The notes under the pieces were generated by a model, which ran no database searches, was not told the origin of the DNA, and saw only the letters and a program-made list of their open reading frames with translations. Of a stretch of 64,000 nucleotides of DNA, positions 4,422 to 57,712 are shown one piece after another. The translations under genes were made by a program, and so were the position numbers. Origin of the DNA: Oscillospiraceae bacterium (GTDB lineage: Bacteria; Bacillota; Clostridia; Oscillospirales; SIG519); NCBI GenBank assembly GCA_015067255.1, contig SVMS01000001.1, forward strand, positions 95,285 to 159,284. Direction: 5' to 3'. Within the stretch, counting starts at the first letter, position 1. Each line of letters opens with the position of its first letter.

Positions 4422-4527
4422 TAAGATTAATTTGTTATTTTAATTGTCCGGAGCAACAGCTTTGTTCAATTATTATATATTATTAATAATGCCTAACGGC
4501 ATAAAAAATTAAAAAAGGAGAATGAAA

Positions 4528-7500
4528 ATGAAAACAGCAAAAAAACTTTTGTGTTTGCTTATGACTGTAGCAATGCTTGTTTCTGTAATTGCTATAGCTC
4601 CTACAGTAAACGCAGCAAAAGGCCCTAACGGTTTAGTAGTTCTTGAGCCCGGCCTTGCTGATGATGGCTATACCCTCGATATAGGCAACTGGGTAGGCGG
4701 AACAGCTTTCTCTGCTATTCCCACAGCAAGCAACGGTTTCCCACTTGTTTGGGTTCCCGCCGGAGATGCCTTCAGCAACACTGATCCGGAAGATTATACA
4801 CAGGGCACAAACAAATTTGAAGTTCCCGGATTCTTTACTGATACGGTAATGTTGAGAGCTCCTTATTCAAGCGGCGGTCCGAGATACGTTGATTACAACG
4901 TTGTAGGCGGCTCCTACATCGGCTTCCTTTCTTACTACAGAAACAATTACAGCCCCTCTACTCTTTACAAAATGTGGTTCCAAAACGCTAATAACACCAA
5001 GGGTGTTAGAGTTATGTACTCCACAGATAACGGCGCTACTTGGGAAGGTCCCCTATCTCATTCTGCGCTCTTTGAGTTTACAAGAACTTCCACAAAAAAT
5101 GCAGCTCCGGGAAGTCAGGATGTAACCTCTCAGCTTAATACAATTGCTAGCTACGTTTTAAATAACAAAACTGCTACAGGAGCTATGTCCTACTTCTATG
5201 ATTACATAGGTATGTGTCATTCTTACCAAATTCCTGAAGACGCAACAATGGTAAGATACATATTCCCCGAAGAAGATCTGCTCCTTACTGATGTTAGCTG
5301 GGGAGTTTCATACGGCTTCTTCTATGGCGGCGCTGCAGCTTCTGCAACACCTATCTCCAATAAAAACTATGTGTTCGAGGGTACAACTGAAATCCCCTCA
5401 GAGCCCGATCCCGAGCCCGATCCCGAGCCCGAACCCGAGCCTGAATTACCTCCCGAAGCTGATAAGGATATCTTCTATCCCGGTACAGCTGACGACCTCA
5501 CAGGCAATGCCTACGGCAGCACACTCTACGGTAAGGCTAACTATTCAGACTACAATGTTGGTTATTTCACATCAATATGGGATTTCTTAACAGGTATGGA
5601 TATCCCTAATGTTGTTGGTAACACCAGATATTCCGAAACTGCTCAATTCTTAGGCTATAACGGTGCTACTCCCGAGGCGCTTGACAACGCAGAGAGAAGC
5701 CTTACATACAATGTTGTCGGCGACACTTATTTTGGCCTTGACTTCTACAGCGGTACTGCAGAAGTTGATTCCTTAATAGATATGATATATGACAGATATG
5801 ATACAGGCTGGCAGCTTTGGATTTCTTCCGATAACGGCGAAACCTATGAGAAAATCAATCCCTATGATTACTATCTAAATAAAATGGGTAGAATAGTAGT
5901 CATCGATGGGGCACAAAAAGACATTCCTGTTACAAACGCTGATTGTTGGTTTGGCCAAGGCGGTCACCTCGGTCTCCTTGACTTCCTTGTAAAGAACAAG
6001 CATTTACAACAGCCCGGCATGAGCCTTGGTGAAGCAGGTGTTGGTGCTTCTCACTTCTCAGTTGGTAAGGCTTACTACTTACCCGAAGGTACTACAAATG
6101 CAAAAATCGTATTCCCCTCTTTCTCTTTTGTAGGCAACGGCGATGCTGTTTGGAACGTTGCTCTTACAGGTGTTAAATCCTCTTTAACTCCTATCACTGC
6201 TGATAGCACAGGAACAATGGCTACAGCTGACGGCGTAACTCTTCCCGAGTATGACAATACCATTGCTTTAGATACCTTCAATAAAGCAACAGGCGCAGCA
6301 GTTGCTGCAGCAGGCTCTGCTAACGTTAACTATTCTTATAATGACTCTGCTGTTTATGTTAACGTTGAAACAGATGCTGATATCGTTGATTTCTACTACA
6401 TCAACAACATCAACTTCCTCCAGAACATAACAGGTAACACAGTATTTGATTTATTCAACATTCCTGCTAACGTTGACGGCGATATTTCCAGCGCTATCGG
6501 AAAGGTTTCCTACAACAAAACAACAGGTGAATTCACAACAGGCAATATGGGCGGCGTATTCTCTGCTGACGATGCTAAATATGCTAAGGCTACAGAGACA
6601 GGCGTATCCTTTATTGTTCCCCGTTCCACAGTTTGCGATAAATTCTTATTCCACGTTGCAGCTTACAACGAAGGCGACAGCACAATGCTTTCTACAGGAA
6701 GCATCAACGGCGGTAGCCTTGCAGGCTTCAAGACCTTGAACTTTGCTGATGTTTCTTCCAAGTATACATTTGCAGACGGTAAGGTTAACAACATTAAGTA
6801 CGGCACAACCGTAAACAACTTTATCATGGGCAACGGAGAGTCTGTAGCTCTTTACAACATCGACGGAAAAGCTCTTGCTTCCAACGAGATATTGAGAACA
6901 GGTACTTATGCAGTTGTTAACGGCAACAGATATGACATTATTCTCGAAAACGACGTAAACGGCGATGCTGATTTCAACGTTCTTGACCTTGTTACAGTAA
7001 GAAATTACCTCTTGAACGTTACTGACTTAGCTCCTGCTTCCAAGAAAGCTGCAGGCGCTGATGAAATTACAATCGTTGAGCTTCTTTCACTTAAGGATGA
7101 TATCCTTGCAGGAAAGACATTTGAGACAGAAGAAGCTTACTCTCCCAAATACATTTCTTTAGACGGCGAATATTCAATTAAGAATACTGCTTCTGCTCAG
7201 GCTATCAAAGATTACCTTGCTACTGCATTGACTGTTGAAGGCTTTATCAGCGCTACAACAGTTGGTACTCTTGAGCCCGGTGTTGACCCCACATTCGAAG
7301 CAGACCTTAACACTGTTTTAACAACAGGTGCTAAGCTTATCGCTCGCGCAGGCTTTGTTTGGGGAGCAGGTCTTGATATGAATATTCACTTTGCAAACTG
7401 CTTTAAGTGGGCTGATTATGTTCACAGAATCGATTCAAGAATTCTTCTTGAGGCTTGTATCTTTGAATCAATTGCTCAAACAACAGCAGAAAGAACAATG

Positions 7501-8361
7501 ATTCCTGCATATGTATTTGAAGCATTTGATCTTCCCGTTGAAACAAGAGCTTTCGATTACTGGAGCATTATTAACTATAATTATGAAAATAAATGGGGAG
7601 ACACTGTTTCAGTTCCCAACTTAGTAGAAACAGAAGCTCAGATGTGGTTCTACTACTTAGCTACACAGTATATTGATGCTGGCTTTGATGTTATCAATCT
7701 TGGTCAGGTAGCTATGTCCTTCGAGGAGGATGACGGTACAGTTCTTAACGAACTTCTCACAATGATAAGAGAATACGCTGCTGAAAACGGAAGAAACAAC
7801 AACGTTCTTATTACAGGACATAACAAATACAATATATCCAAGTTCATTCTTAAAGACGGCAATTTATTATTCGACTTTGATACATTCCCCTCTCGTATTT
7901 ACGACGGTGACGGAGAATATGCAATAGAAGCTAACGGATATATGCCTTGTACCTTGAAGGCAGGATACTTAGATTCTATCTATCAAAGAACTTCTGGCGG
8001 AAAACATCCTCAGGGTTACAATGTATCCGAAAACTTCTATGTAGTTGAAATCGACAACTTTGAAAATAACCATCCCGGTGATCCTACTCCTGCAACTCAT
8101 TATCCTTGGGGTTATGATGAAATCACATGGTTTGCTTTACAGCCCAAAGAAGGACAAACTAAATTCCTTAACCATATGATTAACTCTTTGAAGCTAACTG
8201 ATCCCGGCACAGGATATATCTCTCTTCCCGGACGTCGTACTGCTACACGTACTATAAACGGCGAGACTGAATACCACTTCAACGCTTCCTCTTTAGTTAA
8301 GAATGGTCAAGCACTTGAAAGTGTTTACAGAGATGTTTATTCAAAACAAATTTCAGCTTAA
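4528..8361 (+). CDS. Giant secreted multidomain protein (paralogue 1): two Asp-box-containing domains, Pro/Glu/Asp linker, dockerin-like EF-hand module, C-terminal unassigned putative glycosidase-like domain
   Basis: Start moved to ATG 4528 (7 nt after GGAG; the track ATG 4522 is only 1 nt after it). Signal peptide ending TVNA-AK. Asp-box-like YSTDNGATW and SSDNGETY. PEPDPEPDPEPEPEPE linker. DVNGDADFNVLD loop. About 430-aa C-terminal domain (ARAGFVWGAG...GQVAMSFEEDDG...VVEIDNFENN...WGYDEITWFALQP). Confidence 0.8.
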   Translation: MKTAKKLLCLLMTVAMLVSVIAIAPTVNAAKGPNGLVVLEPGLADDGYTLDIGNWVGGTAFSAIPTASNGFPLVWVPAGDAFSNTDPEDYTQGTNKFEVPGFFTDTVMLRAPYSSGGPRYVDYNVVGGSYIGFLSYYRNNYSPSTLYKMWFQNANNTKGVRVMYSTDNGATWEGPLSHSALFEFTRTSTKNAAPGSQDVTSQLNTIASYVLNNKTATGAMSYFYDYIGMCHSYQIPEDATMVRYIFPEEDLLLTDVSWGVSYGFFYGGAAASATPISNKNYVFEGTTEIPSEPDPEPDPEPEPEPELPPEADKDIFYPGTADDLTGNAYGSTLYGKANYSDYNVGYFTSIWDFLTGMDIPNVVGNTRYSETAQFLGYNGATPEALDNAERSLTYNVVGDTYFGLDFYSGTAEVDSLIDMIYDRYDTGWQLWISSDNGETYEKINPYDYYLNKMGRIVVIDGAQKDIPVTNADCWFGQGGHLGLLDFLVKNKHLQQPGMSLGEAGVGASHFSVGKAYYLPEGTTNAKIVFPSFSFVGNGDAVWNVALTGVKSSLTPITADSTGTMATADGVTLPEYDNTIALDTFNKATGAAVAAAGSANVNYSYNDSAVYVNVETDADIVDFYYINNINFLQNITGNTVFDLFNIPANVDGDISSAIGKVSYNKTTGEFTTGNMGGVFSADDAKYAKATETGVSFIVPRSTVCDKFLFHVAAYNEGDSTMLSTGSINGGSLAGFKTLNFADVSSKYTFADGKVNNIKYGTTVNNFIMGNGESVALYNIDGKALASNEILRTGTYAVVNGNRYDIILENDVNGDADFNVLDLVTVRNYLLNVTDLAPASKKAAGADEITIVELLSLKDDILAGKTFETEEAYSPKYISLDGEYSIKNTASAQAIKDYLATALTVEGFISATTVGTLEPGVDPTFEADLNTVLTTGAKLIARAGFVWGAGLDMNIHFANCFKWADYVHRIDSRILLEACIFESIAQTTAERTMIPAYVFEAFDLPVETRAFDYWSIINYNYENKWGDTVSVPNLVETEAQMWFYYLATQYIDAGFDVINLGQVAMSFEEDDGTVLNELLTMIREYAAENGRNNNVLITGHNKYNISKFILKDGNLLFDFDTFPSRIYDGDGEYAIEANGYMPCTLKAGYLDSIYQRTSGGKHPQGYNVSENFYVVEIDNFENNHPGDPTPATHYPWGYDEITWFALQPKEGQTKFLNHMINSLKLTDPGTGYISLPGRRTATRTINGETEYHFNASSLVKNGQALESVYRDVYSKQISA
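6160..6836 (+). repeat. High-identity tract shared with 20002-20678 (direct orientation, constant offset 13842 nt)
   Basis: Hand alignment gives roughly nine in ten positions identical, with uninterrupted identical runs of about 45-75 nt. The track's shadow ORFs 6446-6739 and 20288-20581 are nearly identical 97-mers. Confidence 0.85.
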
Positions 8362-8590: not shown

Positions 8591-11500
8591 ATGCACAATA
8601 AATTCAAAACTAAAGCCCTATCCGTTTTGACTGCTTTATTGTTACTTAGCTCTGTGTTTACTCTATTGCTGCCTTCCTCTGTTATTGTTGCAGAAGAAGA
8701 GCAACAACCTATCAGGCCCGGAATGTTTGAGGTTTTCAAGTCAGAAAATTATATTACAGGTCAAACAGGTCTTGGCGGAAAATTCTCCAATATTGATCAT
8801 TTTGTGTCTATGTCCATGTTCTTTGGAAGTTATATTAAGCAGATAGATGTTAACTATTGGGCAAGCTCCTCTCGTGCTACCGTTCCTTATGGCATTAGAG
8901 CAATTGACGGTAATCAGAGCATTACATACCCTGTAAGAGATAACACCTATTTTGCTTTTAATACTATTACAGGTACTAACTACAAAATAGGCAGCCTTAC
9001 AAACCTCATTTATAACACTGAGGGCACAGGCTGGCATCTACAGGTTTCCTACGATAACGGAAAAAACTTTGAAAATATCAATTATGATAATATCTATCAG
9101 GCTCAAGCATATAACTGGACTGATGCAAATAAAAGTCCTACTAAAGACAACAGCTTTAATATTCTCGATTATTTAGCTACTTATTCTTCGGAGCCTGATT
9201 ATAAAATTCCTGTTCCCGATTGTGACAAGTACTGTCTTGTTACTCACGTTTATAAAATTCCCGCTTTTGTTACTCACGTAAGAATTATGTTCCCTAAATA
9301 TACTGCTATTGAACAATACGATTCTGTTACCAACCAGCAATACGCAGGTCTTTGGTCTCAGTCTCTTTCTTCAATTAAGCTTTCCAGAACGAAAATTGAT
9401 TCTACTTCAAAAGGCGATACTGCTGTAAAAAACTACTACGAAGACCCTTGCTACAGCGTTAAATCTTCTCAAAAAGAATCTTTTGTCTTCTCAAAAGACA
9501 TTTTATATATCAATGATGAAATCGTAACCGATTTTTCATTATCCAACATTGAAAAAGCCTTTGATACCACTATGTCAAAGGTACAATTCTACGATTCTTC
9601 CGATAATCTTATTACTAATTATTCCACTTTGATTGACGAAACAATGAAGGTTAAATTCGTTGCACACGGATATACAGGTACTGTGGCAGGTCTTGTTGCA
9701 GGTGATGTTATTAACGAATATACAGTTAAAATCAGCGAATTGAAGGAGCCTGAATTTGTTTTAAAGGACAATCTGGCTCATATTGAAATTACTGACAATA
9801 ATATTGTTATAAAACAAAAGTCTGACGAAGAAGATATCACATACGAAGATTTCAAAAACTACTATAATATTTCCTACGGCGATATTCTCTTCTATGAAAT
9901 GGACGGAACTCCCATCACTGACCTTGACGCTATTGTTTCTCCGCAATGTATCGCAAAATTTGTCACAAAAGATTGTCCCGGTCAGGTAGACGGCGTAGTT
10001 AAGAGTACCTGTAATCTTTCCTTGGTATTAGATCCAATATATATTGATTTCCCCGAAACCGAGACTGATTCCAAGCTTATTTTAAAGCCCGGTATTGCAG
10101 ACCGTTTTATTCCTGTAGTTAACCCCACTACCGGCGTTTCCTTCTCTTCCTATGCAACCTTTGAAAACGGTGCGGCACTTAGCTTAGTAAATATCGGTCC
10201 AGATACACTTGCTTGGTTTGATACTCAAAAGGTTGTTTTCGGCAAAGAAGCTACCGGTATGGTTCACTATAACGCAGTTGCTCCTTGGGATATAGAGCCT
10301 GCTTTGGTTTATAAGGTTCAGCCTGAAACCTATGTGGGTGCCGTATTCATTGTCGGAAGTAACCTTACCACTGCTAAGGATGCTTTGGACTCTATAGAAG
10401 ACGTCCAGTTCCTTGCTTCTAAGGACGGCGACATTTGGGTAGACCTTGGCGACCCCTATAAAGGCTGTATTTCCACTACCAACAACCTCTATTTAGGTGA
10501 TATTAAAAGAGCATTGAAAGCGTCCTACGATGACGGAAAAGGTAACAACCACTTCAGTGGCTGGTCTCAGGTGCTTTTCTCATCATATATACCCGAAGGC
10601 TATACCTATTTTAAGATTAAGATGCCCAACAACCTTCTTCAGAGAGAGCTTATTGGTTCATATAGGTTCAAGGATGCTGCCAACGGAGATTATTCTCTTG
10701 ACGATAGCGTTTTATACACCTGGTGTTCAATTCACGGCGCATGGTGTTCTCCCACTCATGAGTTCCTTAACAGTGGAGAAGGCGCTATTGTAGCTACCAA
10801 TGACGGCGTTGTTTTCCAATATGGCTTTAACCTTGCACTTGTCAAGGCTTCTTCAACCCCAATCACCTGTACTCCCGAAGGCGATTTAGTTGCAGGTGAT
10901 CCCGAATACTCTAACAACTACGATGCTTCTGAATTTATAATTAAAGACAATAAAATAAGCGTTTTAGGCGATATTTTAAACGTTCGTAATTTCGGTGATG
11001 AAAAGACAACCTATCAGGAAATTTTAGACAGAATTGAGCTTCGCTTCGCACAGGCTAAGTTCTATACAGACGACACTCTTTCCGTAGAGATTACAGACCT
11101 TTCAAAGCCTGCTGAAAACACAGCTTATCTTTGCATCACTGCTCATAAAAACAAGGTTATTCAGTATTATCCCGAGGGCAAGGTTTTAGGTCTTTTCAAG
11201 GTTTCTCCCGTTAAAGTAACAGACGTTCCCTCTGTTGTTGAAAATGGTAATTTATATACAATTGACCACGAGCAAAAAACCATAACTTTCTTCTACTATA
11301 TGGATGAGAGCGCTCCTACCTATGCAACTGTCAAAAATACACTTAAGGGTAAAGAGGCTCAGTTCAGATTTGAGACACTTGCCGGCGAATACGTTGACAT
11401 TAACCTTGACGGTACCTCAAACTATGCAAATGTTTTAATATGTGCATATAACTGCGAAGGCTTTAACAACGGCGATGTATTTACAAAGTATACACTGTTA

Positions 11501-12649
11501 TTTGAGCCCGTTCTTAAAGATGTTTCTGTTTCAAGTCTTGATGAATCAAAAGTTGAAATTGATAACATCGACAATGTGCTTGTTATTCACTCAGATTCAT
11601 TTACAATCGGTGATATTGACAAGCTTCTCAAAAAGAACAACTGTACTGTAATGTTCTCTATGCTACAGGCTGACGGTTCTTTTGAAACTATTCTCGATTA
11701 CTCAACTCTTGCCAATACTGACGTTTATGTTGACTTGTTCTCAACTGTTGACTCAAGAACCTATTCCTATCCCTTAACCTTCGATGTTCCTCAGAATGAA
11801 GAAGACACTATAAAGGTTCTTAACGTTCCTGAGCTTGAAACATTATCTATTGATGATTTCTCAGCAGTTGTATCCCTTATTACAGAATACAACAAATACT
11901 ATTATCAATATGATGAAAACCAGAGAGCTTATTATGAGAATGCTATCAATCTTTTGAAAACAAAAATGGACAACCTTTTTGTTGCTCAGCAGATTGCAGA
12001 GCTTACAGCGGGACTTCCCACTACTCTTACCTCTGCTAACATCAACACTGTTCTTCTTATAGAGAAGAGCTATGCTTCACTTTTCTCCGAAGTAAGAGAT
12101 ACTCTTGACAGCTCTATAACAGACCAAATTGCTAATTTCAAAGAACAGGTTGGCGCTATTATCCAATCCGATAACGGCGTTAAGGTTTCCGGACTTAAAT
12201 GGAATATCCGTATAAAAGTTAAAGGCTTATCCACTAAGGATGAAGCTTTTGCAAGAGTTAATCCCAAGGTTTCCGGTACAAATCTTCTTTCTCTGTTTGA
12301 AATTGAGTTCTATGACATTTTAAACAATCAAAAATTTGCTCTTGAGGAAGACAAGGTTATTACTATTTCTCTTCCTGTAAAGGATTTTGAAGGTTATGAA
12401 AATCTTTTAGGTCTTTACGAAAGAACTGACGGTAAGGTTTCTTACCTCCAGTCAACCTTAGAGGGTGACTATATCTCCTTCAAGGTTAAGCCCTTTAACA
12501 GCGTTGGTGTTGTTGGCTCTGAGCCCTTCCCCGTTTTAATCGTTGTTTTAGCTTCTATCGGCGGTCTTATCGTTCTTGCAGGAATTGCAGTAGGCGTTAT
12601 CTTCTTTGTTAAAAACAAAAATAAAGTTAAGGGAGGTACAGAGGAATGA
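8591..12649 (+). CDS. Giant surface protein with C-terminal transmembrane anchor; two copies of the same Asp-box-type domain plus about five tandem ~95-aa modules
   Basis: 1352 aa. Signal peptide (ALSVLTALLLLSSVFTLLLPSSVIVA). GWHLQVSYDNGKNFENINY and FLASKDGDIWVDL domains ending YKIPAFVTHVRIMFP / YIPEGYTYFKIKMP. C-terminal TM FPVLIVVLASIGGLIVLAGIAVGVIFFV followed by KNKNKVKGG. Confidence 0.8.
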   Translation: MHNKFKTKALSVLTALLLLSSVFTLLLPSSVIVAEEEQQPIRPGMFEVFKSENYITGQTGLGGKFSNIDHFVSMSMFFGSYIKQIDVNYWASSSRATVPYGIRAIDGNQSITYPVRDNTYFAFNTITGTNYKIGSLTNLIYNTEGTGWHLQVSYDNGKNFENINYDNIYQAQAYNWTDANKSPTKDNSFNILDYLATYSSEPDYKIPVPDCDKYCLVTHVYKIPAFVTHVRIMFPKYTAIEQYDSVTNQQYAGLWSQSLSSIKLSRTKIDSTSKGDTAVKNYYEDPCYSVKSSQKESFVFSKDILYINDEIVTDFSLSNIEKAFDTTMSKVQFYDSSDNLITNYSTLIDETMKVKFVAHGYTGTVAGLVAGDVINEYTVKISELKEPEFVLKDNLAHIEITDNNIVIKQKSDEEDITYEDFKNYYNISYGDILFYEMDGTPITDLDAIVSPQCIAKFVTKDCPGQVDGVVKSTCNLSLVLDPIYIDFPETETDSKLILKPGIADRFIPVVNPTTGVSFSSYATFENGAALSLVNIGPDTLAWFDTQKVVFGKEATGMVHYNAVAPWDIEPALVYKVQPETYVGAVFIVGSNLTTAKDALDSIEDVQFLASKDGDIWVDLGDPYKGCISTTNNLYLGDIKRALKASYDDGKGNNHFSGWSQVLFSSYIPEGYTYFKIKMPNNLLQRELIGSYRFKDAANGDYSLDDSVLYTWCSIHGAWCSPTHEFLNSGEGAIVATNDGVVFQYGFNLALVKASSTPITCTPEGDLVAGDPEYSNNYDASEFIIKDNKISVLGDILNVRNFGDEKTTYQEILDRIELRFAQAKFYTDDTLSVEITDLSKPAENTAYLCITAHKNKVIQYYPEGKVLGLFKVSPVKVTDVPSVVENGNLYTIDHEQKTITFFYYMDESAPTYATVKNTLKGKEAQFRFETLAGEYVDINLDGTSNYANVLICAYNCEGFNNGDVFTKYTLLFEPVLKDVSVSSLDESKVEIDNIDNVLVIHSDSFTIGDIDKLLKKNNCTVMFSMLQADGSFETILDYSTLANTDVYVDLFSTVDSRTYSYPLTFDVPQNEEDTIKVLNVPELETLSIDDFSAVVSLITEYNKYYYQYDENQRAYYENAINLLKTKMDNLFVAQQIAELTAGLPTTLTSANINTVLLIEKSYASLFSEVRDTLDSSITDQIANFKEQVGAIIQSDNGVKVSGLKWNIRIKVKGLSTKDEAFARVNPKVSGTNLLSLFEIEFYDILNNQKFALEEDKVITISLPVKDFEGYENLLGLYERTDGKVSYLQSTLEGDYISFKVKPFNSVGVVGSEPFPVLIVVLASIGGLIVLAGIAVGVIFFVKNKNKVKGGTEE

Positions 12650-18432: not shown

Positions 18433-21400
18433 ATGAAAAAAATCTTATGCTTATTTTTAGCTGTTTCAATATTGCTTTCTGTTTTTCTTGTAACTCCCAA
18501 CATTTCTGCGACAACAGGCACTAACGGAAAGAAAATTCTCTCTCCAGGCACAGTTGATGACGGTTCTACCTTTGATTTTAATAATTCAATGAACGGCAGT
18601 GCTTTTTCTCCTTCACAAAAAGGCTCTGACGGAAACCCTCTTGTCTTTGTGCCTGAAAGTGATACCTTTAATGTTTGTAACGGTCAGGTTGATATTTCCA
18701 ACAACGAATATAAGGTACAGGGCTTTTTTACCGATAAAGTAACCTTAAGAGCGCCTAATACTCAAAGCGGTGTTTCTGAAAGATACGTTGATTACAACGT
18801 TGAAGGCGGTTCATATATCGGCTTTCTTTCCTATTACAGAAACAATTTTACCGCAAATACCATTTCTAAAATGTGGTTTAATACTCATAATAACGGCGTA
18901 AGAGTTATGTATTCTACGGACAACGGTGCTACCTGGAATGGTCCTTTGAGCTATTCTGCTCTTTTTGAATTTGTAAGATTAACTAATCCTACAAGTGTTG
19001 AAAACGGAGCTCAAAATCCTCAGTCTCAGCTTGATAATCTTCCTGCTCAGGTTGCCCATATGATAAACAACAATTCAGGACAAAGCAATATGCTTTGGTT
19101 TTATGAATATGTAGGTATGTGTCATTCCTATTCTATTCCTTCAGATGCAACAATGGTAAGATACATATTCCCTGCCGATTCAGTAATTCAGTCCGAAGGC
19201 GAATGGCTTCAAAACCGTGGCTTTCTTTATGGCGGTGCAGCAGCTTCTTCTACCCCAATTAACGACAAAACCTTTTCTTTTGTTTCTTCTGAGCCTAAGC
19301 CGGATTTACCAAAAGAACCCGAAAAGCCTCTCTTTACACCGGGCTCGGTTGATAATCTTATTGTAAATGACTTTGGCAGCACACAATACGGCGCTGCAAA
19401 CTTTAATAATTTCGGTATACCTCCGCTGAATAATATAGACGAATTTCTTAAAATTAACGATACAATCAAATACGCTGCAGATAATAAATTCTCTGAAGAT
19501 ATATATTTCTTAGGTTATAATATTCTCCCCTCTGATCTATATTCTAAAGAAAAAAGTCTTACCTACAGGGTTGTGGGTGACAGTTACTTTGCTTTTGACT
19601 TTTTCTCCTCCAATGCAGAAAGTCTGCAGTTAGCTAATCTGTTATACGACAGAAACGGCACAGGCTGGCAGCTATGGTTTTCTTCCGACAACGGAAAAAA
19701 TTACAAGAAGGCTGAGCCTTACGAGTTCTATCTTAATAAGATGGTAAGATTTAACGGTAGTTCATCATATATTGTAAAGGATTCTGACTGCTGGTTTGGA
19801 CAAGGCGTCAATAAAGGTCTTCTCGACTTTCTTAAATTAAATATGCATTCATCAACTACCATAGGTCTTAGTGACCCTAATGCCGGCGCTTCTCACTTTA
19901 TTTTAGGTAAATCCTACTATTTACCCGAAGGTACTACAAATGCAAAAATTGTATTCCCCGATTTATCTTATGTAAGTAACGGTGAAGAACGTTGGAAGCT
20001 TGCTCTTACAGGTGTTAAGGCTTCTTTAACTCCTATTACTGCTGAGAGCGCAGGCTCAAAAGCTACAGTTGACGGCGTAACTCTTCCCGAGTACGACAAC
20101 ACCTTTGCTTTAGATACCTTCAATAAAGCAACAGGCGCAGTTGCTGCAGCTACAGGCTCTGCTAATGTTAACTACTCTTATGACGACAGCAACGTTTATG
20201 TTAACGTTGAAACTGATGCTGATATCGTTGATTTCTACTATATCAACAACATCAACTTCCTTCAGAACATAACAGGCAACACAGTATTTGATTTATTCAA
20301 CATTCCTGCTAACGTTGACGGCGATGTTTCCAGCGCTATCGGAAAAATCTCCTACAATGCAACAACAGGTAAATTCACAACAGACAATATGGGCGGCGTA
20401 TTCTCTGCAGACGAAGCTAAAGACGCTAAGGCTACAGAAACAGGCGTATCCTTTATTGTTCCCCGTTCCACAGTTTGCGATAAATTCTTATTCCATGTTG
20501 CAGCGTACAACGAAGGCGACAGCACAATGCTTTCTACAGGAAGCATCAACGGCGGTAGCCTTGCAGGCTTCAAGACCTTGAGCTTTGCTGATGTTTCTTC
20601 CAAATATACATTTGCAGACGGAAAGGTTAACAATATTAAATACGGCACAAGTGTAAACAGCTTTATCATGGGCAACGGCAAGACTGTATCACTTTTCAGT
20701 GCTGACGGAAAAGCTCTTGCGTCCAATACTATATTGGGCACAGGCGCTTATGCAGTTGTTGACGGCAACAAGTATGATATCGTTCTTGAAAATGACGTTA
20801 ACGGCGACGCTGATTTTAACATTCTTGATGCTGTTACTGTAAGAAACAGTCTGTTAGGTATTTATGAGTTAAGTGATGCTTCAAAAGAAGCAATAAATAC
20901 TAAAACACCTTCTCTTATTGACCTTTTATCTTTAAAATCTGATATCCTTAACGGCAAAAAATTTGAAGAGGAAAAAGAATATTGTCCAAAGTATATTTCT
21001 TTAGACGGTGAATTTTCAATAAAAGGACAGGCTTCCCGTGAATCACTTCAAAATTATCTTGCCTCTGCTTCAACTCTTGAAGGCTTTATCAGTGCTACTA
21101 CAGTAGGAGACCTTGTTCCCGGTGTTGACCCTACATTTGAACAAGACCTTCAAACTGTTTTAACAACAGGCTCGAGATTGATTGCCCGTGCAGGCTTTAT
21201 CTGGTCTAACGGACTTGAGCTTATTACTCACTTTGCAAACAGCAAAAAATATGCAAAATATGTTCACGATATTGATTCAAGAATTATTCTTGAGGCTTGT
21301 ATTTTTGAAGCTATCGGAGAAGAAACATCTTCAAGAACTATAATTCCCGAATACGTACTTGAAGCCTTTGGAGAACCCATTGAAAAGTCAAGACCCTTTG

Positions 21401-22218
21401 ATTACTGGAATATAATAAATTATGATTATCTGAATATTTGGGGTAACGGTACCTCCGTTCCTGATATGACAACCTTGGAAGGACAAATGTGGTGCTATTA
21501 CTTAGCCACCCAGTATATTGATGCAGGCTTTGATATTATAGACTTCGGACAAATAGCTTTAATTAGCGCAAATGATGACGGTACTGCTGTAAATAAGCTC
21601 TTTAATATGGTAAGAGAATATGCCGCCGAAAACGGAAGAAACAACAATGTTCTTATTACAGCTCACGTTTATTATAATTTAAGGCCTGAAATACTTTACA
21701 GTAACCCATCTACAAAGCTTTTGAATTTTGACTATCTTACCTTCCCCTCCCGTATATATGACGGTAACGGAAGCTATGAAATTGAAAGTGACGGATATAT
21801 GCCCTGTACCATAGAGGTCGGATTTATTGACTCTCTGTATGGCAGAACTCCCGAGGGTATGTCTCCCCAAGGCTATTATATGGAAAATGCTCTTTATTTG
21901 GTTGAGTTTGATAACTTCGGTCACGAAAGTATGCCTGACGGAGTTGCAACCGGCACGTATATTCCCTGGGGCTATGACGAAATTACCTGGTATGCTTTAC
22001 AGCCCAAAAGAGCTCAGATGCAATTTATGACAGAGGCAATAGCCGCTATTCGTTCCTTTGACGACGGTGTTGGCTATTTTGCCCTTCCCTTCCGCCGTAA
22101 TTCTACCCGTATAATAAACGGAGAGGTTGAATATATGTTTAATGCTTCCTCTAAGGTTAAAAACGGCGCAGGACTCGAAGCCTTTTTCAGACAAATAATT
22201 ACAACAAGCTGGAAATAA
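18433..22218 (+). CDS. Giant secreted multidomain protein (paralogue 2 of 4528-8361)
   Basis: 1261 aa. RBS aaaggagag. Signal peptide ending NISA-TT. Same domain order as paralogue 1 (YSTDNGATW, SSDNGKNY, DVNGDADFNILD, C-terminal ARAGFIW...WGYDEITWYALQP). Confidence 0.8.
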   Translation: MKKILCLFLAVSILLSVFLVTPNISATTGTNGKKILSPGTVDDGSTFDFNNSMNGSAFSPSQKGSDGNPLVFVPESDTFNVCNGQVDISNNEYKVQGFFTDKVTLRAPNTQSGVSERYVDYNVEGGSYIGFLSYYRNNFTANTISKMWFNTHNNGVRVMYSTDNGATWNGPLSYSALFEFVRLTNPTSVENGAQNPQSQLDNLPAQVAHMINNNSGQSNMLWFYEYVGMCHSYSIPSDATMVRYIFPADSVIQSEGEWLQNRGFLYGGAAASSTPINDKTFSFVSSEPKPDLPKEPEKPLFTPGSVDNLIVNDFGSTQYGAANFNNFGIPPLNNIDEFLKINDTIKYAADNKFSEDIYFLGYNILPSDLYSKEKSLTYRVVGDSYFAFDFFSSNAESLQLANLLYDRNGTGWQLWFSSDNGKNYKKAEPYEFYLNKMVRFNGSSSYIVKDSDCWFGQGVNKGLLDFLKLNMHSSTTIGLSDPNAGASHFILGKSYYLPEGTTNAKIVFPDLSYVSNGEERWKLALTGVKASLTPITAESAGSKATVDGVTLPEYDNTFALDTFNKATGAVAAATGSANVNYSYDDSNVYVNVETDADIVDFYYINNINFLQNITGNTVFDLFNIPANVDGDVSSAIGKISYNATTGKFTTDNMGGVFSADEAKDAKATETGVSFIVPRSTVCDKFLFHVAAYNEGDSTMLSTGSINGGSLAGFKTLSFADVSSKYTFADGKVNNIKYGTSVNSFIMGNGKTVSLFSADGKALASNTILGTGAYAVVDGNKYDIVLENDVNGDADFNILDAVTVRNSLLGIYELSDASKEAINTKTPSLIDLLSLKSDILNGKKFEEEKEYCPKYISLDGEFSIKGQASRESLQNYLASASTLEGFISATTVGDLVPGVDPTFEQDLQTVLTTGSRLIARAGFIWSNGLELITHFANSKKYAKYVHDIDSRIILEACIFEAIGEETSSRTIIPEYVLEAFGEPIEKSRPFDYWNIINYDYLNIWGNGTSVPDMTTLEGQMWCYYLATQYIDAGFDIIDFGQIALISANDDGTAVNKLFNMVREYAAENGRNNNVLITAHVYYNLRPEILYSNPSTKLLNFDYLTFPSRIYDGNGSYEIESDGYMPCTIEVGFIDSLYGRTPEGMSPQGYYMENALYLVEFDNFGHESMPDGVATGTYIPWGYDEITWYALQPKRAQMQFMTEAIAAIRSFDDGVGYFALPFRRNSTRIINGEVEYMFNASSKVKNGAGLEAFFRQIITTSWK
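20002..20678 (+). repeat. High-identity tract shared with 6160-6836
   Basis: See 6160-6836. Confidence 0.85.
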
Positions 22219-22222
22219 CCAT

Positions 22223-22247
22223 AAAAAAACTGTGCAGAATTAGCGTG
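22223..22247. repeat. Left arm of a 25-bp inverted repeat bracketing the whole convergent gap
   Basis: aaaaaaactgtgcagaattagcgtg versus the reverse complement of 22599-22623 (aaaaaagctgtgcagaattggcgtg), 23/25. Starts 5 nt after the stop at 22216-22218. Confidence 0.85.
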
Positions 22248-22441
22248 ATACTCTTAACGGAGTATCACGCAACTCTATTCGCCTACGGCGAGTGATATTG
22301 CTTCGCAGTGATATTCGGCTTTTAGCCGAGTGCTATTTGGCTCCGCCAAGTTATATGCGAATAGAATATCACGGAACCGATAGGTTTCATATCACTTTCG
22401 CAAAGCGAAAATATCACGCTGGCGACAGTCAGCATATCACT
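22243..22441 (+). repeat. Hairpin-array repeat, copy A (GTGATAT/ATATCAC family)
   Basis: H0 hairpin 22243-22270; tattcgcc at 22276. GTGATAT-type heptamers at 22292, 22308, 22330 and 22350, separated by mini-hairpins. gcgaata at 22358. ATATCAC at 22366, 22389, 22411 and 22434, separated by 13-16-nt hairpins. Confidence 0.9.
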
Positions 22442-22455
22442 TTACAGACAAAAAG

Positions 22456-22500
22456 AAAGAGAAGACTCGTCAAGTACGAATCTTCTCTTTTCTGTTGTTA
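22456..22500 (+). terminator. Hairpin with U-rich tail inside the convergent gap
   Basis: aaagagaaga (22456-22465) pairs with tcttctcttt (22481-22490), followed by ttctgttgtt. Confidence 0.45.
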
Positions 22501-22598
22501 GTGGGTTTGGGCTGCTGCCCAAGTGCGTTTGTACATACAAATGCGATGCTGGTTCTTAACCGAATTTGAAAGAATTTCATTTTCTCCGATAAGAACAA

Positions 22599-22623
22599 CA
22601 CGCCAATTCTGCACAGCTTTTTT
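22599..22623. repeat. Right arm of the 25-bp inverted repeat
   Basis: cacgccaattctgcacagctttttt; ends 6 nt before the coaW-like stop at 22630. Confidence 0.85.
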
Positions 22624-22629
22624 AAGCTT

Positions 22630-32296: not shown

Positions 32297-32474
32297 GAGG
32301 AGTGCCTGTAAGGACACTCCTCAGTTTTATTCGTCTTACGGCGAGTGGTATTGCTCCGCAGTGATATTTGTTAAAACAAGTGATATTGCCTTCGGCAGTT
32401 TTTGGGGGCGAATAAAATAAAACTAAAACCAATAGGTTTTAATAGCACTATTACCATATGATAATAATATCACT
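32297..32474 (+). repeat. Hairpin-array repeat, copy B (right arm partly degenerate)
   Basis: H0 gaggagtg...cactcctc at 32297-32322; tattcgtc at 32328. agtggtatt, agtgatatt and agtgatatt separated by mini-hairpins. ggcgaata. Then aaataaaac, atagcact and aatatcact separated by hairpins (taaaaccaataggtttta, attaccatatgataat). Confidence 0.8.
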
Positions 32475-35586: not shown

Positions 35587-37905
35587 ATGGAAAGACAGAT
35601 TTTTAAAGAAATTAAAGGCATAAAAATTATTGATAAAAATATAATATCAAATCTTTTGTTTTCTCTGCTTGGCTTTATACTGACAAACGGATACATATTT
35701 TCAAATCTTTCACCCTTTGGAGTTGCTCTTACTGCCGCATTTTCCATTAAATCCAAGCTTTCAATTTTGCCCGTAGCAGTAATTTCGGCAAGCTATTTTA
35801 TCAAAGGAACAGAGGGTATAAAATATGCTGTTGCGGTATGGGGTATTTATGCACTTAGAAAAGTATTTAAGAAAAACAATTTTAAGTATGACGGCAACTC
35901 TTTCTTTGCCCTTGCTTCAGGCATAATAATTATTGTAACGTCTTTGGGTGAACTTCTCCAAAGCTACGCAACGGCGCTTGATATAATGTATTCTATCTCA
36001 ATAGGAATACTTTGCGGCGGTATTTGCTTTTTCTATATAAAAACTATCCCTGTTTTTGAAAATTCAATAGGACGCAATATACGCCTTACAAAAAATGAGC
36101 TTATAGGCGTTTTGATATGTGTTGCAAGCTTTTTGCTTTCTCTATGCGAAATTAGGCTTTTTGAAATTTCCTTGGGACATATTCTGGGAAGTCTTATAAT
36201 TCTTATTTCCGCCCGATGCGGAGGTATAGCCTTTGCAGGTGTAAGCGGAATAGCCATAGGCTCTGTGCTTAGTCTTAGTCAGAACTCCTCCCCTTCCACA
36301 ATCGGTGTCTATGCTTTCGGCGCTTTGGTGGCAGGCATTTTTTCCGAAAGAAGAAAAATAATATGCGTCATTTCCTTTTTGCTTGCAAATATACTTGTAG
36401 GAATATATATAAACAATTCAGAATTTATTCTCATAAATTTAACGGAAACGGCTTTAGGCTCTTTAATTTATCTTATTATGCCAAAATTTTTATTAAACCG
36501 CATCGGCAACAGCCTAACCTATGGCGAAAACCTTTCCGTTCAGGCACAGGAAAAATTTAAAGAGCTTTTTGTATCACGCTTAAAAAATGCCGCCTCCTCC
36601 TTTTCACAGCTTGCATATACAGTAAAAGCTTCGGGAGAAATTTTTTCAAATAAAGCAGTAAAGCAAACACCCGACCAGATAATAAGTAACGTATGCAGTG
36701 AGCTTTGCAACGATTGTAAAAACAAAATGTTTTGCTGGAATAACTCCTTTGACGATACTATGAGGGTATTAAATGACTGCATCACTGTCTTTAAGGAAAA
36801 GGGCTCTATTGATGCCTTGGATTTGCCCGGATATTTTCGTTCACGCTGTTTAAAAAGCGAAGCCCTGGCTTCTAAGCTTTCCTTAAAGCTTTATGCTCTT
36901 TATTCAGAGGAGGATATGGAGCATAAGCAAGAGGAAAACAGAGCTATTTTAGCACAGCAATATTCGGGAGTATCTCAGATTATGGACAATATAGCCTCTG
37001 AGCTTGAAGATGTGGTGAAATTCAACAGTCTTTACACTCAAAGGGTTACAAGCTATCTTTGCTCAGAGGGGCTTAAATGCGAAAAAGTATTCGCTTACAG
37101 CGATGCCGATGGCTTTAACGTAATAGAGGCTCAGGGTAAAATGCAAAAGCCTATGCCCAGCTCTAAAAAAATATGCTATGAAATTTCAAAGCTTATAGGC
37201 TGTGATATGGAAATGCTCTTTATGAAAAGCGACGGCATTAACTATGAAATAAAGCTTTGTGAAAAGGAAGAATTATCTGTCTTTTGTGCAAAAGCTATGT
37301 GCCAAAAAAACGGTGAAACCGTGTGCGGAGATTTTGCCTCCTCTTTTCGCGCAGGACGTGGTAAATACGCAATAACCTTAAGTGACGGAATGGGAAGCGG
37401 ACATCAGGCTCAAAGGGATAGCTTGCTTACAGTTGCTTTTCTTGAAAAATTACTCAAGGCAGGCTTTGACAAAGACAGCGCTATGGAGCTTGTAAACTCT
37501 GCTCTTATTTTAAAGTCCGATGATGAAAGCTTTGCCACTGTAGATATCGCAATAATAAATTTGATAAACGGTGTTACCGAATTTATAAAAGCGGGTGCCG
37601 CACCGACATTTATAAAAAGAGGCAGAAGCATTTATGAATTGGGCTGCTCCTGTTTACCTGTGGGCATTTTAGGTGAGGTTAAATTTGAAAAATCCCGCTG
37701 CCGTCTTAAAAAAGGTGATTTATTGGTTATGGTTTCAGACGGAATAACCTGTGCAGGCAACAAAATAATATCAAAAATCCTCACAGACTATAACGGCAAT
37801 TCCCCCTCTGAAATTTCCCGTATTATTCTTGAAAGCATAAAGAAAATATGCGGAGAAAATGACGATATGACAGTAATAGCGGCATATATAAACAAAAACG
37901 AATAA
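35587..37905 (+). CDS. spoIIE: Stage II sporulation protein E (polytopic membrane PP2C phosphatase)
   Basis: 772 aa. About 10 N-terminal TM segments. C-terminal PP2C (GDFASSF...ITLSDGMGSGHQAQRDS...DDMTVIAAYI). Confidence 0.85.
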   Translation: MERQIFKEIKGIKIIDKNIISNLLFSLLGFILTNGYIFSNLSPFGVALTAAFSIKSKLSILPVAVISASYFIKGTEGIKYAVAVWGIYALRKVFKKNNFKYDGNSFFALASGIIIIVTSLGELLQSYATALDIMYSISIGILCGGICFFYIKTIPVFENSIGRNIRLTKNELIGVLICVASFLLSLCEIRLFEISLGHILGSLIILISARCGGIAFAGVSGIAIGSVLSLSQNSSPSTIGVYAFGALVAGIFSERRKIICVISFLLANILVGIYINNSEFILINLTETALGSLIYLIMPKFLLNRIGNSLTYGENLSVQAQEKFKELFVSRLKNAASSFSQLAYTVKASGEIFSNKAVKQTPDQIISNVCSELCNDCKNKMFCWNNSFDDTMRVLNDCITVFKEKGSIDALDLPGYFRSRCLKSEALASKLSLKLYALYSEEDMEHKQEENRAILAQQYSGVSQIMDNIASELEDVVKFNSLYTQRVTSYLCSEGLKCEKVFAYSDADGFNVIEAQGKMQKPMPSSKKICYEISKLIGCDMEMLFMKSDGINYEIKLCEKEELSVFCAKAMCQKNGETVCGDFASSFRAGRGKYAITLSDGMGSGHQAQRDSLLTVAFLEKLLKAGFDKDSAMELVNSALILKSDDESFATVDIAIINLINGVTEFIKAGAAPTFIKRGRSIYELGCSCLPVGILGEVKFEKSRCRLKKGDLLVMVSDGITCAGNKIISKILTDYNGNSPSEISRIILESIKKICGENDDMTVIAAYINKNE

Positions 37906-43118: not shown

Positions 43119-43173
43119 TTTTATAAAAGAAGCACAAATCCTTTGTGTTGTCTCCAAAATGACCGTAAAAGAA

Positions 43174-43205
43174 GAAGCGCGAAAATCTCGTGCTTCTTTT
43201 AATTT
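43174..43205 (+). terminator. Rho-independent terminator after radA; near-identical stem-loop recurs at 49601-49623
   Basis: gaagcgcga-aaatc-tcgtgcttc followed by ttttaatttt. Confidence 0.7.
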
Positions 43206-43303
43206 TGTCTTATATCTTGACAAGCAGGGAATTTGTACGGCAAATTCCACTTGTTAAGAGAACCTAAAACCCTTTTCCCGACTCAAAAGAAAATCATTTT
43301 AAT

Positions 43304-43505
43304 AGTGATATTGTGAGACAGGTCTCACAATGATATTTTTGACAAATCAAAAGTGATATTAAAACCTATCGGTTTTAGTGGTATTTTATTTGCCTCAAAA
43401 CTTGCGAAGCAAATAGCACTCGGCAAAGCCGAATAACACTGCGAAGCAATACAACTCGACGCAAGGCAAATAAAACTGGCCAAGTATCCGTAAGGATACT
43501 TGGCC
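43304..43505 (-). repeat. Hairpin-array repeat, copy C (inverted orientation)
   Basis: Read on the minus strand: H0 ggccaagtatcc...ggatacttggcc; tatttgcc. agttgtatt, agtgttatt and agtgctattt separated by mini-hairpins. ggcaaata. Then aataccac, atatcact, atatcat and atatcact separated by hairpins (taaaaccgataggtttta, tttgatttgtcaaaa, tgtgagacctgtctcaca). Confidence 0.9.
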
Positions 43506-43527
43506 TTGCTCTGTGCTTCTTTGTTTA

Positions 43528-48688: not shown

Positions 48689-48730
48689 TTTGCATCGTTT
48701 TACGTTTAATATCCATTACCACAGTAGCAA

Positions 48731-48760
48731 AAAAATCTCGTTTTTAAGCGAGATTTTTTG
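48731..48760 (+). terminator. Rho-independent terminator after the small regulator
   Basis: aaaaatctcg-tttttaag-cgagattttt followed by tg. Confidence 0.65.
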
Positions 48761-48779
48761 TTGCAATGCCCTTGAGTTA

Positions 48780-48944
48780 TATTCGCCTGCGGCGAGTGAT
48801 ATTGGCTGTGCCAGTGATATTTGCTTCGCAAGTTATATTGCCCTTCGGGCAGTTTTAGCGGCGAATATAATATCACTGCCGCAAAAACGGCAATATCACT
48901 TTCGCAACGCGAAAATATCACTCCGTCGAAGACGGAATATCACT
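48780..48944 (+). repeat. Hairpin-array repeat, copy D
   Basis: tattcgcc at 48780. agtgatatt, agtgatatt and agttatatt separated by mini-hairpins (ggctgtgcc, tgcttcgca, gcccttcgggc). ggcgaata. ATATCAC at 48870, 48893, 48915 and 48937, separated by hairpins (tgccgcaaaaacggca, ttcgcaacgcgaa, tccgtcgaagacgga). Confidence 0.9.
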
Positions 48945-48981
48945 TAAAAAATCTAAATAATTAGATTTATAAAGTAAAACT

Positions 48982-49011: not shown

Positions 49012-49067
49012 TGTTTGCATTGAAAGAAGATATATTTTGTGTTATAATAGAATTAAGAGGTGATTTT

Positions 49068-49472
49068 ATGGGTTTATTTGATATCTTTAAGAAAAAGAAA
49101 CCACCGTTAACCGAAGAACTATTAAAATGGAAAAAAATGTGGAATTTGTGGTTTGAGGAAAGAGCTGAATCACCTTATCAAGAACTAATGACTTATAAAA
49201 GTGAAACTGGTATTGGAGGGCATAACCAATATTTTGCCAATTTCGAAAACACTGGTGATTTTAAAAAAGAAATATCCGCTTTGGAGCAAATCTTGTCAGA
49301 AAAATTGAAAAATAATTTGAATAGGGCATATGGAACATATTTGTCATTAGAAGAAAAAGAGGAGGACGGAAAAGCAGAGGAGATTTTGAAACAGTACGAT
49401 GATGTATTCTATGAAAATGAGGAAGAGATTAATCGTTTGCTCGAAGAATACGCCTCTAAAATCGAACTTTAA
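49068..49472 (+). CDS. Hypothetical protein, possibly DMP19/DUF4375-like
   Basis: 134 aa from ATG 49068 after aagaggtga. ETGIGGHNQYFANFENTGDFKKEISALEQI resembles the NGG-x-QYF-N core of DUF4375. Acidic C-terminus. Confidence 0.35.
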   Translation: MGLFDIFKKKKPPLTEELLKWKKMWNLWFEERAESPYQELMTYKSETGIGGHNQYFANFENTGDFKKEISALEQILSEKLKNNLNRAYGTYLSLEEKEEDGKAEEILKQYDDVFYENEEEINRLLEEYASKIEL

Positions 49473-57611: not shown

Positions 57612-57712
57612 AGGTCTTTCCCTCCTTTCAAAAATTTGTGTTTAGAAAAAGAAATAGCTTTGCGCGGGGTGGCTGAAGAAATAAGTCGCTCCGTCAAAAA
57701 GAGTTATTTCTT

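Follow-up and report, generated by a model that had tools for sequence, protein, structure and literature searches.

Gut-1 (RF01706) in gut Clostridia: a dispersed hairpin-array repeat, its place in host terminators and its PF05635-encoding relatives

Introduction

Four intergenic hairpin arrays, termed here copies A to D, lie in a 64-kb stretch of an Oscillospiraceae bacterium genome (assembly GCA_015067255.1, contig SVMS01000001.1, positions 95,285 to 159,284; hereafter the window). Copy B is flanked by whiA and a GHL10/amidase gene, copy C lies between the PFOR gene and radA, and copy D sits between two ordinary terminators, the first of which serves a 164-aa open reading frame (ORF) and ends 15 nt before the array; a DMP19-like ORF (49020-49472) follows copy D. 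Their common core consists of a leading hairpin (P0), a left arm that a long-range helix of 11 bp (P1) closes, and a mirrored right arm, and on sequence evidence the four elements are two-armed copies of the Gut-1 family (Rfam RF01706).

Gut-1 was originally presented as a probable non-coding RNA, known from human-gut metagenomes only and given no function (Weinberg et al., 2010; PMC2864571), and since 2010 it has stood in Rfam under the family type 'sRNA' (small RNA) of uncultivated gut bacteria, with neither function nor context. The motif itself is already catalogued, hence not new; the context, the full architecture and the protein partner of Gut-1 appear not to have been described previously. 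The family is a dispersed DNA repeat, many copies of which occupy split host terminators and bring terminators of their own. Full-length relatives carry a gene of the PF05635 four-helix-bundle family, and the heptamer on which the array is built tracks the lineage of that protein. Gut-1 elements are most likely not free-standing small RNA genes.

Gut-1 elements in the window

A first-pass annotation, made from the letters of the window alone, had singled out the four elements as a repeat family built on GTGATAT and ATATCAC heptamers. Inspection of the sequence agrees with the positions and the order of parts that it gave, and the right-arm starts listed for copies A and D are exact. A common anatomy had also been proposed and holds overall, except that copy D has no leading hairpin of its own and the right arm of copy B is degenerate. 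The extents stand as cores, but copies A and C belong to larger inserts (Table 1). Searched with an nhmmer profile derived from relatives, the window yields these four copies and no others, the number first counted. The heptamer is enriched: the window has 30 ATATCAC sites where 5.8 +/- 2.5 are expected, and 20 of the 30 fall inside the four elements; ATATCAC-N8-24-ATATCAC pairs number nine, against none in 100 shuffles. Better folding than dinucleotide shuffles was confirmed for all eight arms (z = -2.6 to -6.7; -2.7 / -2.65 in copy B, -4.7 / -4.45 in copy C and -6.7 / -3.7 in copy D). The complementarity noted between TATTCGCC and GGCGAATA is real; in each of the four left arms it forms part of an 11-bp helix in the minimum-energy structure, and an inverted-repeat search recovered the compensated pair tatttgcc/ggcaaata of copy C.

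Rfam was scanned at the gathering threshold (50 bits) and then permissively. The first scan gave one match, to the right arm of copy D (48865-48945, minus strand, 55.4 bits). Five further arms were added by the second, namely both arms of copy A and the left arms of B, C and D (36-50 bits), bringing the matches to RF01706 to six of the eight arms (reported E-values 3e-7 to 1e-3). The model fits left arms on the strand of the element and right arms on the opposite strand. The earlier view that the repeat resembles no known element was therefore wrong, and the match to a described RNA family is an outcome that the annotation itself had named as speaking against novelty. The hallmark of Gut-1, a series of covarying-stem hairpins separated by conserved GUGA(A/U)AU, is present in the alignment of the copy D hit, and across the copies compared below 31 of 50 pairs have changed on both sides. 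Three short hairpins with AUU...AGU bases, 3-nt GAU/GAA linkers and the gut habitat are likewise common to the window copies and the published family. The published description differs in that it lacks the context, the right arm, the closing helix, the link to a protein and a function; its source was human gut metagenomes, whereas the present copies also come from named lineages of metagenome-assembled genomes (MAGs) in humans and ruminants. In the Stockholm file of Weinberg et al., the flanks of the Gut-1 seeds BAAZ01000095 and BAAZ01025322 hold a predicted terminator, a left arm, GGCGAAUAUAAUAUCAC and a four-motif right arm. Read in this way, the seeds carry the full two-armed architecture, of which the Rfam model covers one arm only.

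A dispersed repeat with its own leading hairpin

Scanning a species-representative genome collection with a left-arm pattern returned at least 120 loci, and the locus counts given below draw on the matches listed. Among these, nearly all are gut MAGs assigned to Acutalibacteraceae, Oscillospiraceae, Ruminococcaceae, 'Eubacteriales' or 'Clostridia', with humans, goats, sheep, deer, cattle and buffalo as hosts. A simpler scan for three copies of GTGATAT was rejected, as it returned unrelated tandem repeats, mostly from giant-virus bins. The plasmid collection gave no match and the phage collection gave one unverified contig (L327; MT835815.1, 5074-5173). On this faecal 'Bacteriophage sp.' contig, tRNA-Arg and a terminator are accompanied by a GTGATAT array and a four-helix-bundle gene; judged by eye, the contig appears to be the same unit as locus L245 and the seed BAAZ01025322, and it is probably a bacterial fragment, not a phage.

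The array starts at the U-tract of a hairpin of 12-14 bp (below -8 kcal/mol), the end of which coincides with CAG|TT in 90 of 93 copies. These leading hairpins fall into few sequence families, yet the 72 proteins encoded upstream form 69 BLAST clusters. Co-oriented tRNA genes of nine specificities lie 27-43 nt upstream in 14 of 121 elements. The unit of copy A, about 380 bp long (window 22240-22603/22623), is 80-87% identical at loci L129, L148, L155, L227 and L228, that is, in six genomes with the window. The P0 sequence of copy A stands behind unrelated genes at all five loci, and the genes on both sides of the unit are unrelated among them. The shared P0 and right flank would also suit an orthologous conserved locus, but BLAST shows the flanking genes to be unrelated, which ruled this out and changed the conclusion from conserved locus to dispersed repeat. 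The leading hairpin is thus part of the repeat, a point that goes beyond the first-pass annotation. Eleven further copies were found in 766 kb of seeded-locus flanks, compared with four in the 64-kb window.

At L143, two tRNA-terminator-element units (1025 and 1438) lie 413 bp apart with identical elements and downstream flanks and different tRNAs and terminators, a local duplication that includes the element. MAG contigs start or stop within the element at L125, L132, L161, L163, L189, L190 and L201; these ends are assembly breaks at a multicopy repeat.

Insertion into host terminators

Upstream of P0 lies an A-tract followed by a copy-specific GC-containing stretch of 7-12 nt, the reverse complement of which recurs 105-170 nt past the right arm and is followed by a T-tract. 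Exact bracketing inverted repeats of at least 10 nt are found at 27 of 77 loci (35%) against 1.8% of shuffles, and those of at least 12 nt at 23% of loci against 0.08% of shuffles; the enclosed insert mostly measures 334-375 bp. Since the outer stems differ wholly between copies, the simplest reading is that a bidirectional intrinsic terminator of the host has been split in its loop. That units are inserted into host terminators had likewise not been noted in the first pass. In copy A the host stem and the element ends form one 46-nt inverted repeat (22217-22262 / 22584-22629, 83% complementary), while the host stem of copy C (43522-43512 / 43136-43126) is 11 nt long and 100% complementary, with 375 nt between its arms. 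Imperfect terminal inverted repeats of about 20 bp reach at least the 99th percentile of shuffles in 17 of 27 composites, among them copy A.

The insert bears a terminator-like hairpin at each side. In copy C, terminator-like scores are obtained for P0 on the minus strand, where it would serve the PFOR gene, and for the tail hairpin on the plus strand, where it would serve radA (Table 1). With such a replacement on each side, both convergent host genes would still terminate. Single array units also score as weak inward-facing terminators.

Several smaller features accompany the inserts. The host-stem sequence of copy C, AAAGAAGCAC, is present three times (43124-36, and as its complement at 43190-201 and 43512-22), and the tail terminator hairpin at 43172-43198 resembles it; the target terminator may have been duplicated when the insertion took place, or a rearrangement may have followed. 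The tail module of copy A (22499-22583) comprises three hairpins, GGGTTTGGGC..GCCCAA, TTTGTAC..ACAAA and GGTTCTTAACCGA..TCCGATAAGAAC. Five other genomes carry it at unrelated loci with 80-87% conservation, and Rfam contains nothing that matches it. The module may derive from a gene region since lost, or it may be a second structured unit. Another module, CAAGCAGGGAATTTGTnnGGCAAATTCC (window about 43225-43255), recurs beside right arms at L145, L146, L215, L224 and L238, in the orientation opposite to the window copy. Mini-hairpins of about 40 nt, CTTTTGGAA(A)TA..TCGCC..GGCGA..TTCCAAAAG, sit inside array-hairpin loops in the left arm of L145 and the right arm of L155:3848-4052, a pattern that points to hairpin loops as repeated targets of insertion on more than one scale.

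Core anatomy and covariation

The core measures 170-179 nt in nearly all complete copies. Its motifs keep fixed positions, with L0 at -5, L1 to L3 at +15, +31 and +52, the centre near +78 and R1 to R4 at +88, +113, +136 and +160. RNAalifold, applied to 29 diverse copies, predicts P1 together with the local hairpins, pairing AGUU(N)UAUUCGC with GCGAAUA(N')AAU. The position N:N' is UA, AU or CG in 29 of 29 sequences; these types track sub-families, so they represent few events rather than 29. P1 is maintained with quite different sequences in other heptamer lineages.

Covariation was assessed on a structure specified by the authors, with 500 shuffles and slid structures as controls. Pairing holds in 94.8% of cells of this structure, and both sides have changed in 31 of 50 pairs, a result equalled by none of the 500 shuffles, and the slid controls reach at most 47% paired. 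One-sided (G-U) changes are nearly absent. Stems are 92-95% Watson-Crick, and G:T and A:C oppositions are both rare (29 and 28 in total; 6:10 in left arms and 23:18 in right arms). The first-pass description of conserved heptamers alternating with varying palindromic spacers thereby gains statistical support.

Loops of the left arm, read on the element strand, are TTC, TTT, TAC, TGC, TTGC or TTAC, and those of the right arm are the reverse complements GAA, AAA, GTA, GCA, GCAA and GTAA. Three further structural candidates were rejected. Loop-loop kissing was one, since left and right loops are complementary as populations but unmatched within elements by inspection. Pairing of left with right motifs as a ladder of four-way junctions was another, its compensation being weak and inconsistent (L3:R1 has 6 compensated against 8 mismatched of 54). 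The third was a promoter at the TATAAT-like centre GGCGAATATAAT, which has no -35 element at usable spacing. The only motif pairing supported is that of L0 with the centre, namely P1.

Linkage to PF05635 genes

The largest recurrent family of downstream ORFs encodes proteins of 116-125 aa and lies directly after R4 at five loci (L125, L150, L206, L233 and L236); the only other downstream recurrence is three helix-turn-helix (HTH)-like ORFs. The protein matches PF05635 (E = 1e-27) and TIGR02436. Among the 120 matches listed there are nine PF05635 genes, six of which are neighbours of a Gut-1 right arm: five follow R4 directly, and that of L189 is convergent with the arm. Upstream of the genes of L238 and of L189 stand analogous two-armed arrays on other heptamers, L189 thus belonging to both groups.

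A metagenome scan with the protein alignment yielded 80 loci, and 70 relatives entered the array count. Of the close relatives (at least 75% identity), five had sufficient sequence upstream, and all five carry GTGATAT arrays. At least three forward and three reverse-complement heptamers lie upstream in 34 of 70 relatives, compared with 2 of 70 shuffles. The 11 array-bearing loci displayed follow one layout: a tRNA gene or ORF, a terminator hairpin, L0/P1, the left arm, P1', the right arm, a promoter and the gene. In all of them the -35 element abuts R4 and is followed by TGnTATAAT and a ribosome-binding site. The heptamer varies with the protein lineage (GTGAAAT, ATGAAAT, GTGAAGT, GTGATGT or AATGAAG), and mean protein identity is 73% for pairs with the same motif and 52% for pairs with different motifs. 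tRNA genes lie at most 420 nt upstream of 16 of 64 PF05635 genes. Traces of the gene-bearing form persist in gene-less copies, which retain a -35 remnant (TTTACA after R4 in copy A); one gene-less sub-family retains the terminator module found after the ORF of L233. Copy B is identical in all three other metagenome contigs included in a strain comparison.

Some PF05635 genes have a second array type upstream, of contiguous heptamers with a 7-nt period in two inverted blocks and without hairpin spacers (L260, L262, L268, L275, L282, L284, L285, L292, L296, L299 and L322). Small genes that follow four-helix-bundle genes, labelled from their translated starts, are deaminase-like (L125, L195), GNAT-like (L238) or zinc-ribbon-like (L236), and may be the varied cargo of a cassette platform, as may the DMP19-like ORF behind copy D.

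Table 1. Positions of Gut-1 model matches and of the parts of copies A to D in the window
Feature	Position	Strand	Remark
Gut-1 match, copy A left arm	22270-22341	+	46.9 bits
Gut-1 match, copy A right arm	22361-22442	-	45.7 bits
Gut-1 match, copy B left arm	32322-32391	+	46.0 bits
Gut-1 match, copy C left arm	43408-43478	-	35.9 bits
Gut-1 match, copy D left arm	48774-48843	+	49.8 bits
Copy A, host terminator 5' half	22223..22240	+	A-tract 22223-22229, stem CTGTGCAGAAT 22230-22240; split by insert
Copy A, whole insert	22241-22605	+	First-pass element is the core only
Copy A, leading hairpin P0	22243..22270	+	GCGTGATACTC / GAGTATCACGC; doubles as left terminal inverted repeat of insert
Copy A, core	22271..22441	+	L0 / P1 5' strand 22274-22285
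Copy A, left-arm motifs	22291-22299, 22307-22315, 22329-22337, 22349-22357	+	
Copy A, P1 3' strand / centre	22354-22367	+	
Copy A, right-arm ATATCAC	Starts 22366, 22389, 22411, 22434	+	
Copy A, tail	22442..22605	+	Includes -35-like TTTACA remnant after R4
Copy A, bidirectional terminator hairpin	22448-22498	+	In tail
Copy A, conserved tail module	22499-22583	+	
Copy A, right terminal inverted repeat	22584-22605	+	
Copy A, host terminator 3' half	22606..22623	+	Stem ATTCTGCACAG 22606-22616, T-tract 22617-22623
Copy B	32297..32474	+	P0 32297-32322, L0 32323-32331, left arm, centre GGCGAATA
Copy B, right arm	Final ATATCAC 32467-32473	+	Degenerate
Copy C, host terminator 5' half	43512..43522	-	AAAGAAGCACA; between PFOR and radA
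Copy C, whole insert	43137-43511	-	First-pass element is the core only
Copy C, core	43304..43505	-	P0 terminator hairpin 43505-43478, left arm, right arm end 43304
Copy C, helix P1	43475-43464 / 43395-43384	-	
Copy C, tail	43137..43303	-	Hairpin 43170-43200 scores as plus-strand terminator for radA
Copy C, host terminator 3' half	43126..43136	-	TGTGCTTCTTT on minus strand
Copy D, upstream terminator	48730..48759	+	AAAAAATCTCG...CGAGATTTTTT; intact, separate
Copy D, core	48775..48944	+	L0 48775-48783, left arm, centre GGCGAATATAAT, without own P0
Copy D, right-arm ATATCAC	Starts 48870, 48893, 48915, 48937	+	

Other features of the window

Beyond the arrays, the window encodes three very large ORFs (4522-8361, 8591-12649 and 18433-22218; 1279, 1352 and 1261 aa) with no Pfam domain, in a glycan-utilisation neighbourhood with GH2, a pectate-lyase-like protein and an AraC regulator. 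A sortase-dependent pilus operon (55348-63136, minus strand) holds two sortases, Cna_B/SpaA pilins and an LPXTG anchor; this operon and SpoIIE (35587-37905) jointly identify the host as a spore-forming Firmicute.

Interpretation

The favoured reading, to which about an even chance is given, is that the window elements are gene-less derivatives, comparable with miniature inverted-repeat transposable elements (MITEs), of a small dispersed DNA element, and that the heptamers of this element serve a four-helix-bundle protein as docking sites. A complete relative consists of a gene or tRNA, P0, the P1-closed left arm, the right arm, a promoter with a TG-extended -10 box and a PF05635 gene of about 118 codons' product length (~118 aa). 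The window copies would have lost the gene and kept the non-coding 'head'. Copies A and C are inserts of 365-375 bp in the loop of a bidirectional terminator common to two convergent genes, and the array between the hairpins of the insert would be shielded from incoming transcription. The heptamers AGTGATATT / AATATCACT, displayed between hairpins that compensatory change maintains, would dock an oligomeric four-helix-bundle protein. As the window contains no PF05635 gene, supply of the protein in trans is assumed, and the window copies would depend on it. The hairpins presumably form in single-stranded DNA or in read-through RNA, and the protein would accordingly act on hairpin-extruded DNA or on rare read-through RNA. 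Mirrored arms and terminator shielding favour a two-fold-symmetric complex at the DNA level.

Several observations weigh against this reading. No PF05635 gene was found in the 64-kb window, and domain searches of the 47 window ORFs scanned found no transposase, reverse transcriptase or HUH domain. The four-helix-bundle protein is, to our knowledge, not a known transposase, and its gene adjoins only about 5-7% of the elements selected by DNA. Copies B and D and the tRNA-linked copies elsewhere are not bracketed by a split host stem (an outer inverted repeat was looked for at copy B and not found), and copy C shows no convincing terminal inverted repeats in the shuffle test. No clear target-site duplication was seen, the junction nucleotides TT/TTA/ATTT being ambiguous, and a search for empty sites via RadA homologues recovered none, the nearest relatives (79% and 68% identity) not being syntenic. 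Co-variation of motif and lineage is also expected from co-inheritance alone. Plain binding to double-stranded DNA would not need hairpins, and the U.G conserved at hairpin bases favours RNA, as does the judgement of the original authors, who took Gut-1 for an RNA (Weinberg et al., 2010; PMC2864571).

That judgement leads to the first alternative, which is considered unlikely here: Gut-1 as a structured non-coding RNA, arising by terminator read-through (for example as a trailer 3' of strongly expressed genes or tRNA operons) or from a promoter that has escaped recognition, and acting as a protein sponge or scaffold with the heptamers as single-stranded binding sites between hairpins. This is the published view, and it coincides with the structured-RNA option of the first-pass annotation. 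Gut-1 was classed 'RNA: certainly' on covariation (Rfam; Weinberg et al., 2010; PMC2864571), and in the copies compared here both the hairpins and the closing helix P1 covary strongly. Every left-arm hairpin has a conserved U.G wobble at its base (AUU/AGU), PF05635 proteins are homologues of Avd, and read-through from the tRNA genes that closely precede 14 of 121 elements would give much RNA. Against this, in 90 of 93 copies the start of the array coincides with the U-tract of a strong hairpin, convergent settings place a second terminator opposite it, and a search upstream of the arrays in copies A and C found no promoter-like site. A single RNA strand leaves unexplained why the right arm mirrors the left down to its loops (TTC/TAC/TGC/TTGC against GAA/GTA/GCA/GCAA), one-sided G-U intermediates are nearly absent, and the unit acts like an inserted DNA element with terminal inverted repeats. 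Wobble counts showed no strand bias by which the array could be assigned to RNA or DNA (G:T 29, A:C 28), which is a further point that the favoured reading cannot claim; because leading hairpins likewise show none (49 against 41), the test has no power and pair types leave the choice undecided.

Alternatively, the array could act as duplex DNA, being an operator or regulatory region upstream of the promoter that drives the four-helix-bundle gene and serving autoregulation or insulation from an upstream tRNA operon, with the gene-less window copies as inert relics. All complete units have the last right-arm motif immediately next to the -35 element of a strong TGnTATAAT promoter, the inverted arms recall symmetric operators, and the weak inward-facing termination scored for array units would suit such a role. 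Yet eight to nine sites over 170 bp are excessive for autoregulation, and neither spacing that varies from 16 to 26 bp nor compensated hairpins are necessary for duplex binding. Gene-less copies, moreover, far outnumber gene-bearing ones and are 80-87% identical over 380 bp between species at unrelated loci. This explanation is judged improbable.

A REP/BIME- or REPIN-like substrate of a hairpin-recognising HUH enzyme (RAYT or IS200-type) is very improbable, for although the niche is similar (gene 3' ends and convergent gene pairs), hairpins carry a conserved flanking motif in inverted order and contigs break at the element as at multicopy repeats, the hairpin sequences vary between copies where REP palindromes are conserved, no Y1/HUH transposase domain occurs among the window ORFs, and the retrieved loci, which were not scanned for HUH domains, show only the PF05635 and HTH-like recurrences downstream. 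The first-pass annotation had offered this substrate, a protein-binding array and a structured RNA as possible functions; the HUH option finds no support, and the protein-binding array gains indirect support from the four-helix-bundle gene linkage and the lineage-specific heptamers.

Should the linkage hold, two orphans would each gain a testable partner, the protein and its lineage-specific heptamer array. PF05635 proteins, which include 23S rRNA intervening sequence (IVS) proteins and relatives of Avd, are widespread and have been without an explained function since 1993. An Rfam 'sRNA' would then be reclassified as the cis region of a dispersed DNA element, and terminator loops with replacement terminators would explain how small elements settle harmlessly in compact genomes. 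On the practical side, these repeats break MAG assemblies of abundant gut Clostridia.

Comparison with known systems

CRISPR arrays combine conserved repeats of 23-50 nt with unique, non-palindromic spacers, whereas here the conserved units are 9 nt long and the variable parts are palindromic; no cas domains were found among the window ORFs scanned. REP/BIME-RAYT systems pair a conserved palindrome bearing a GTAG-type foot with a Y1/HUH transposase, in contrast to the varying hairpins and the HUH-free window described above. MITEs and mosaic repeats (REP/BIME, ERIC, Correia, BOX, bcr1) come closer. Like them, the present elements are short, non-coding, multicopy, modular or mosaic and strongly structured, sit at gene 3' ends and between convergent genes, have longer gene-bearing relatives and, in most composites, carry terminal inverted repeats; many short non-coding copies occur in unrelated contexts, as is typical of MITEs. 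They differ in their conserved 9-mers between variable compensated hairpins, in the two mirrored arms and in insertion within terminator loops with replacement terminators. No transposase-encoding autonomous partner was found either, the longer relatives encoding only the PF05635 protein, of which the window has none.

In diversity-generating retroelements (DGRs), Avd forms an oligomeric barrel of basic character that acts together with structured nucleic acid, and homing requires a DNA hairpin located downstream of the variable repeat. Reverse transcriptase, template repeat and variable repeat are absent from the window and from the surroundings of the arrays; the likeness lies in Avd itself, which is homologous to the PF05635 gene product (PMC10053308).

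Intervening sequences of 23S rRNA with a PF05635 ORF have been summarised recently (bioRxiv 10.1101/2024.02.27.582315). In both systems the insert replaces the apical loop of a host hairpin (here in copies A and C and at 27 of 77 related loci), pairing between the ends of the insert lengthens the host stem (46 nt in copy A, 83% complementary), and ORF-bearing and ORF-less versions exist with the same protein family. The host hairpin, however, is an intrinsic terminator here and not an rRNA helix, and the PF05635 ORF that defines the classical insert is absent from the window copies and present in relatives without a visible split host stem. Such ORF-carrying intervening sequences reportedly go back to work of Ralph and McClelland in 1993, and we know of no heptamer or hairpin arrays described for them. 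Tentatively, and on the doubtful side, Gut-1 and its sister arrays may form an unrecognised class of cassettes in which an Avd-like PF05635 protein reads lineage-specific heptamer arrays on hairpin ladders, spreading by invasion of hairpin loops (terminators here, rRNA helices in the classical IVS) and replacing the terminator that is disrupted. Among known systems, the classical 23S rRNA intervening sequence is the closest analogy to the elements in this window.

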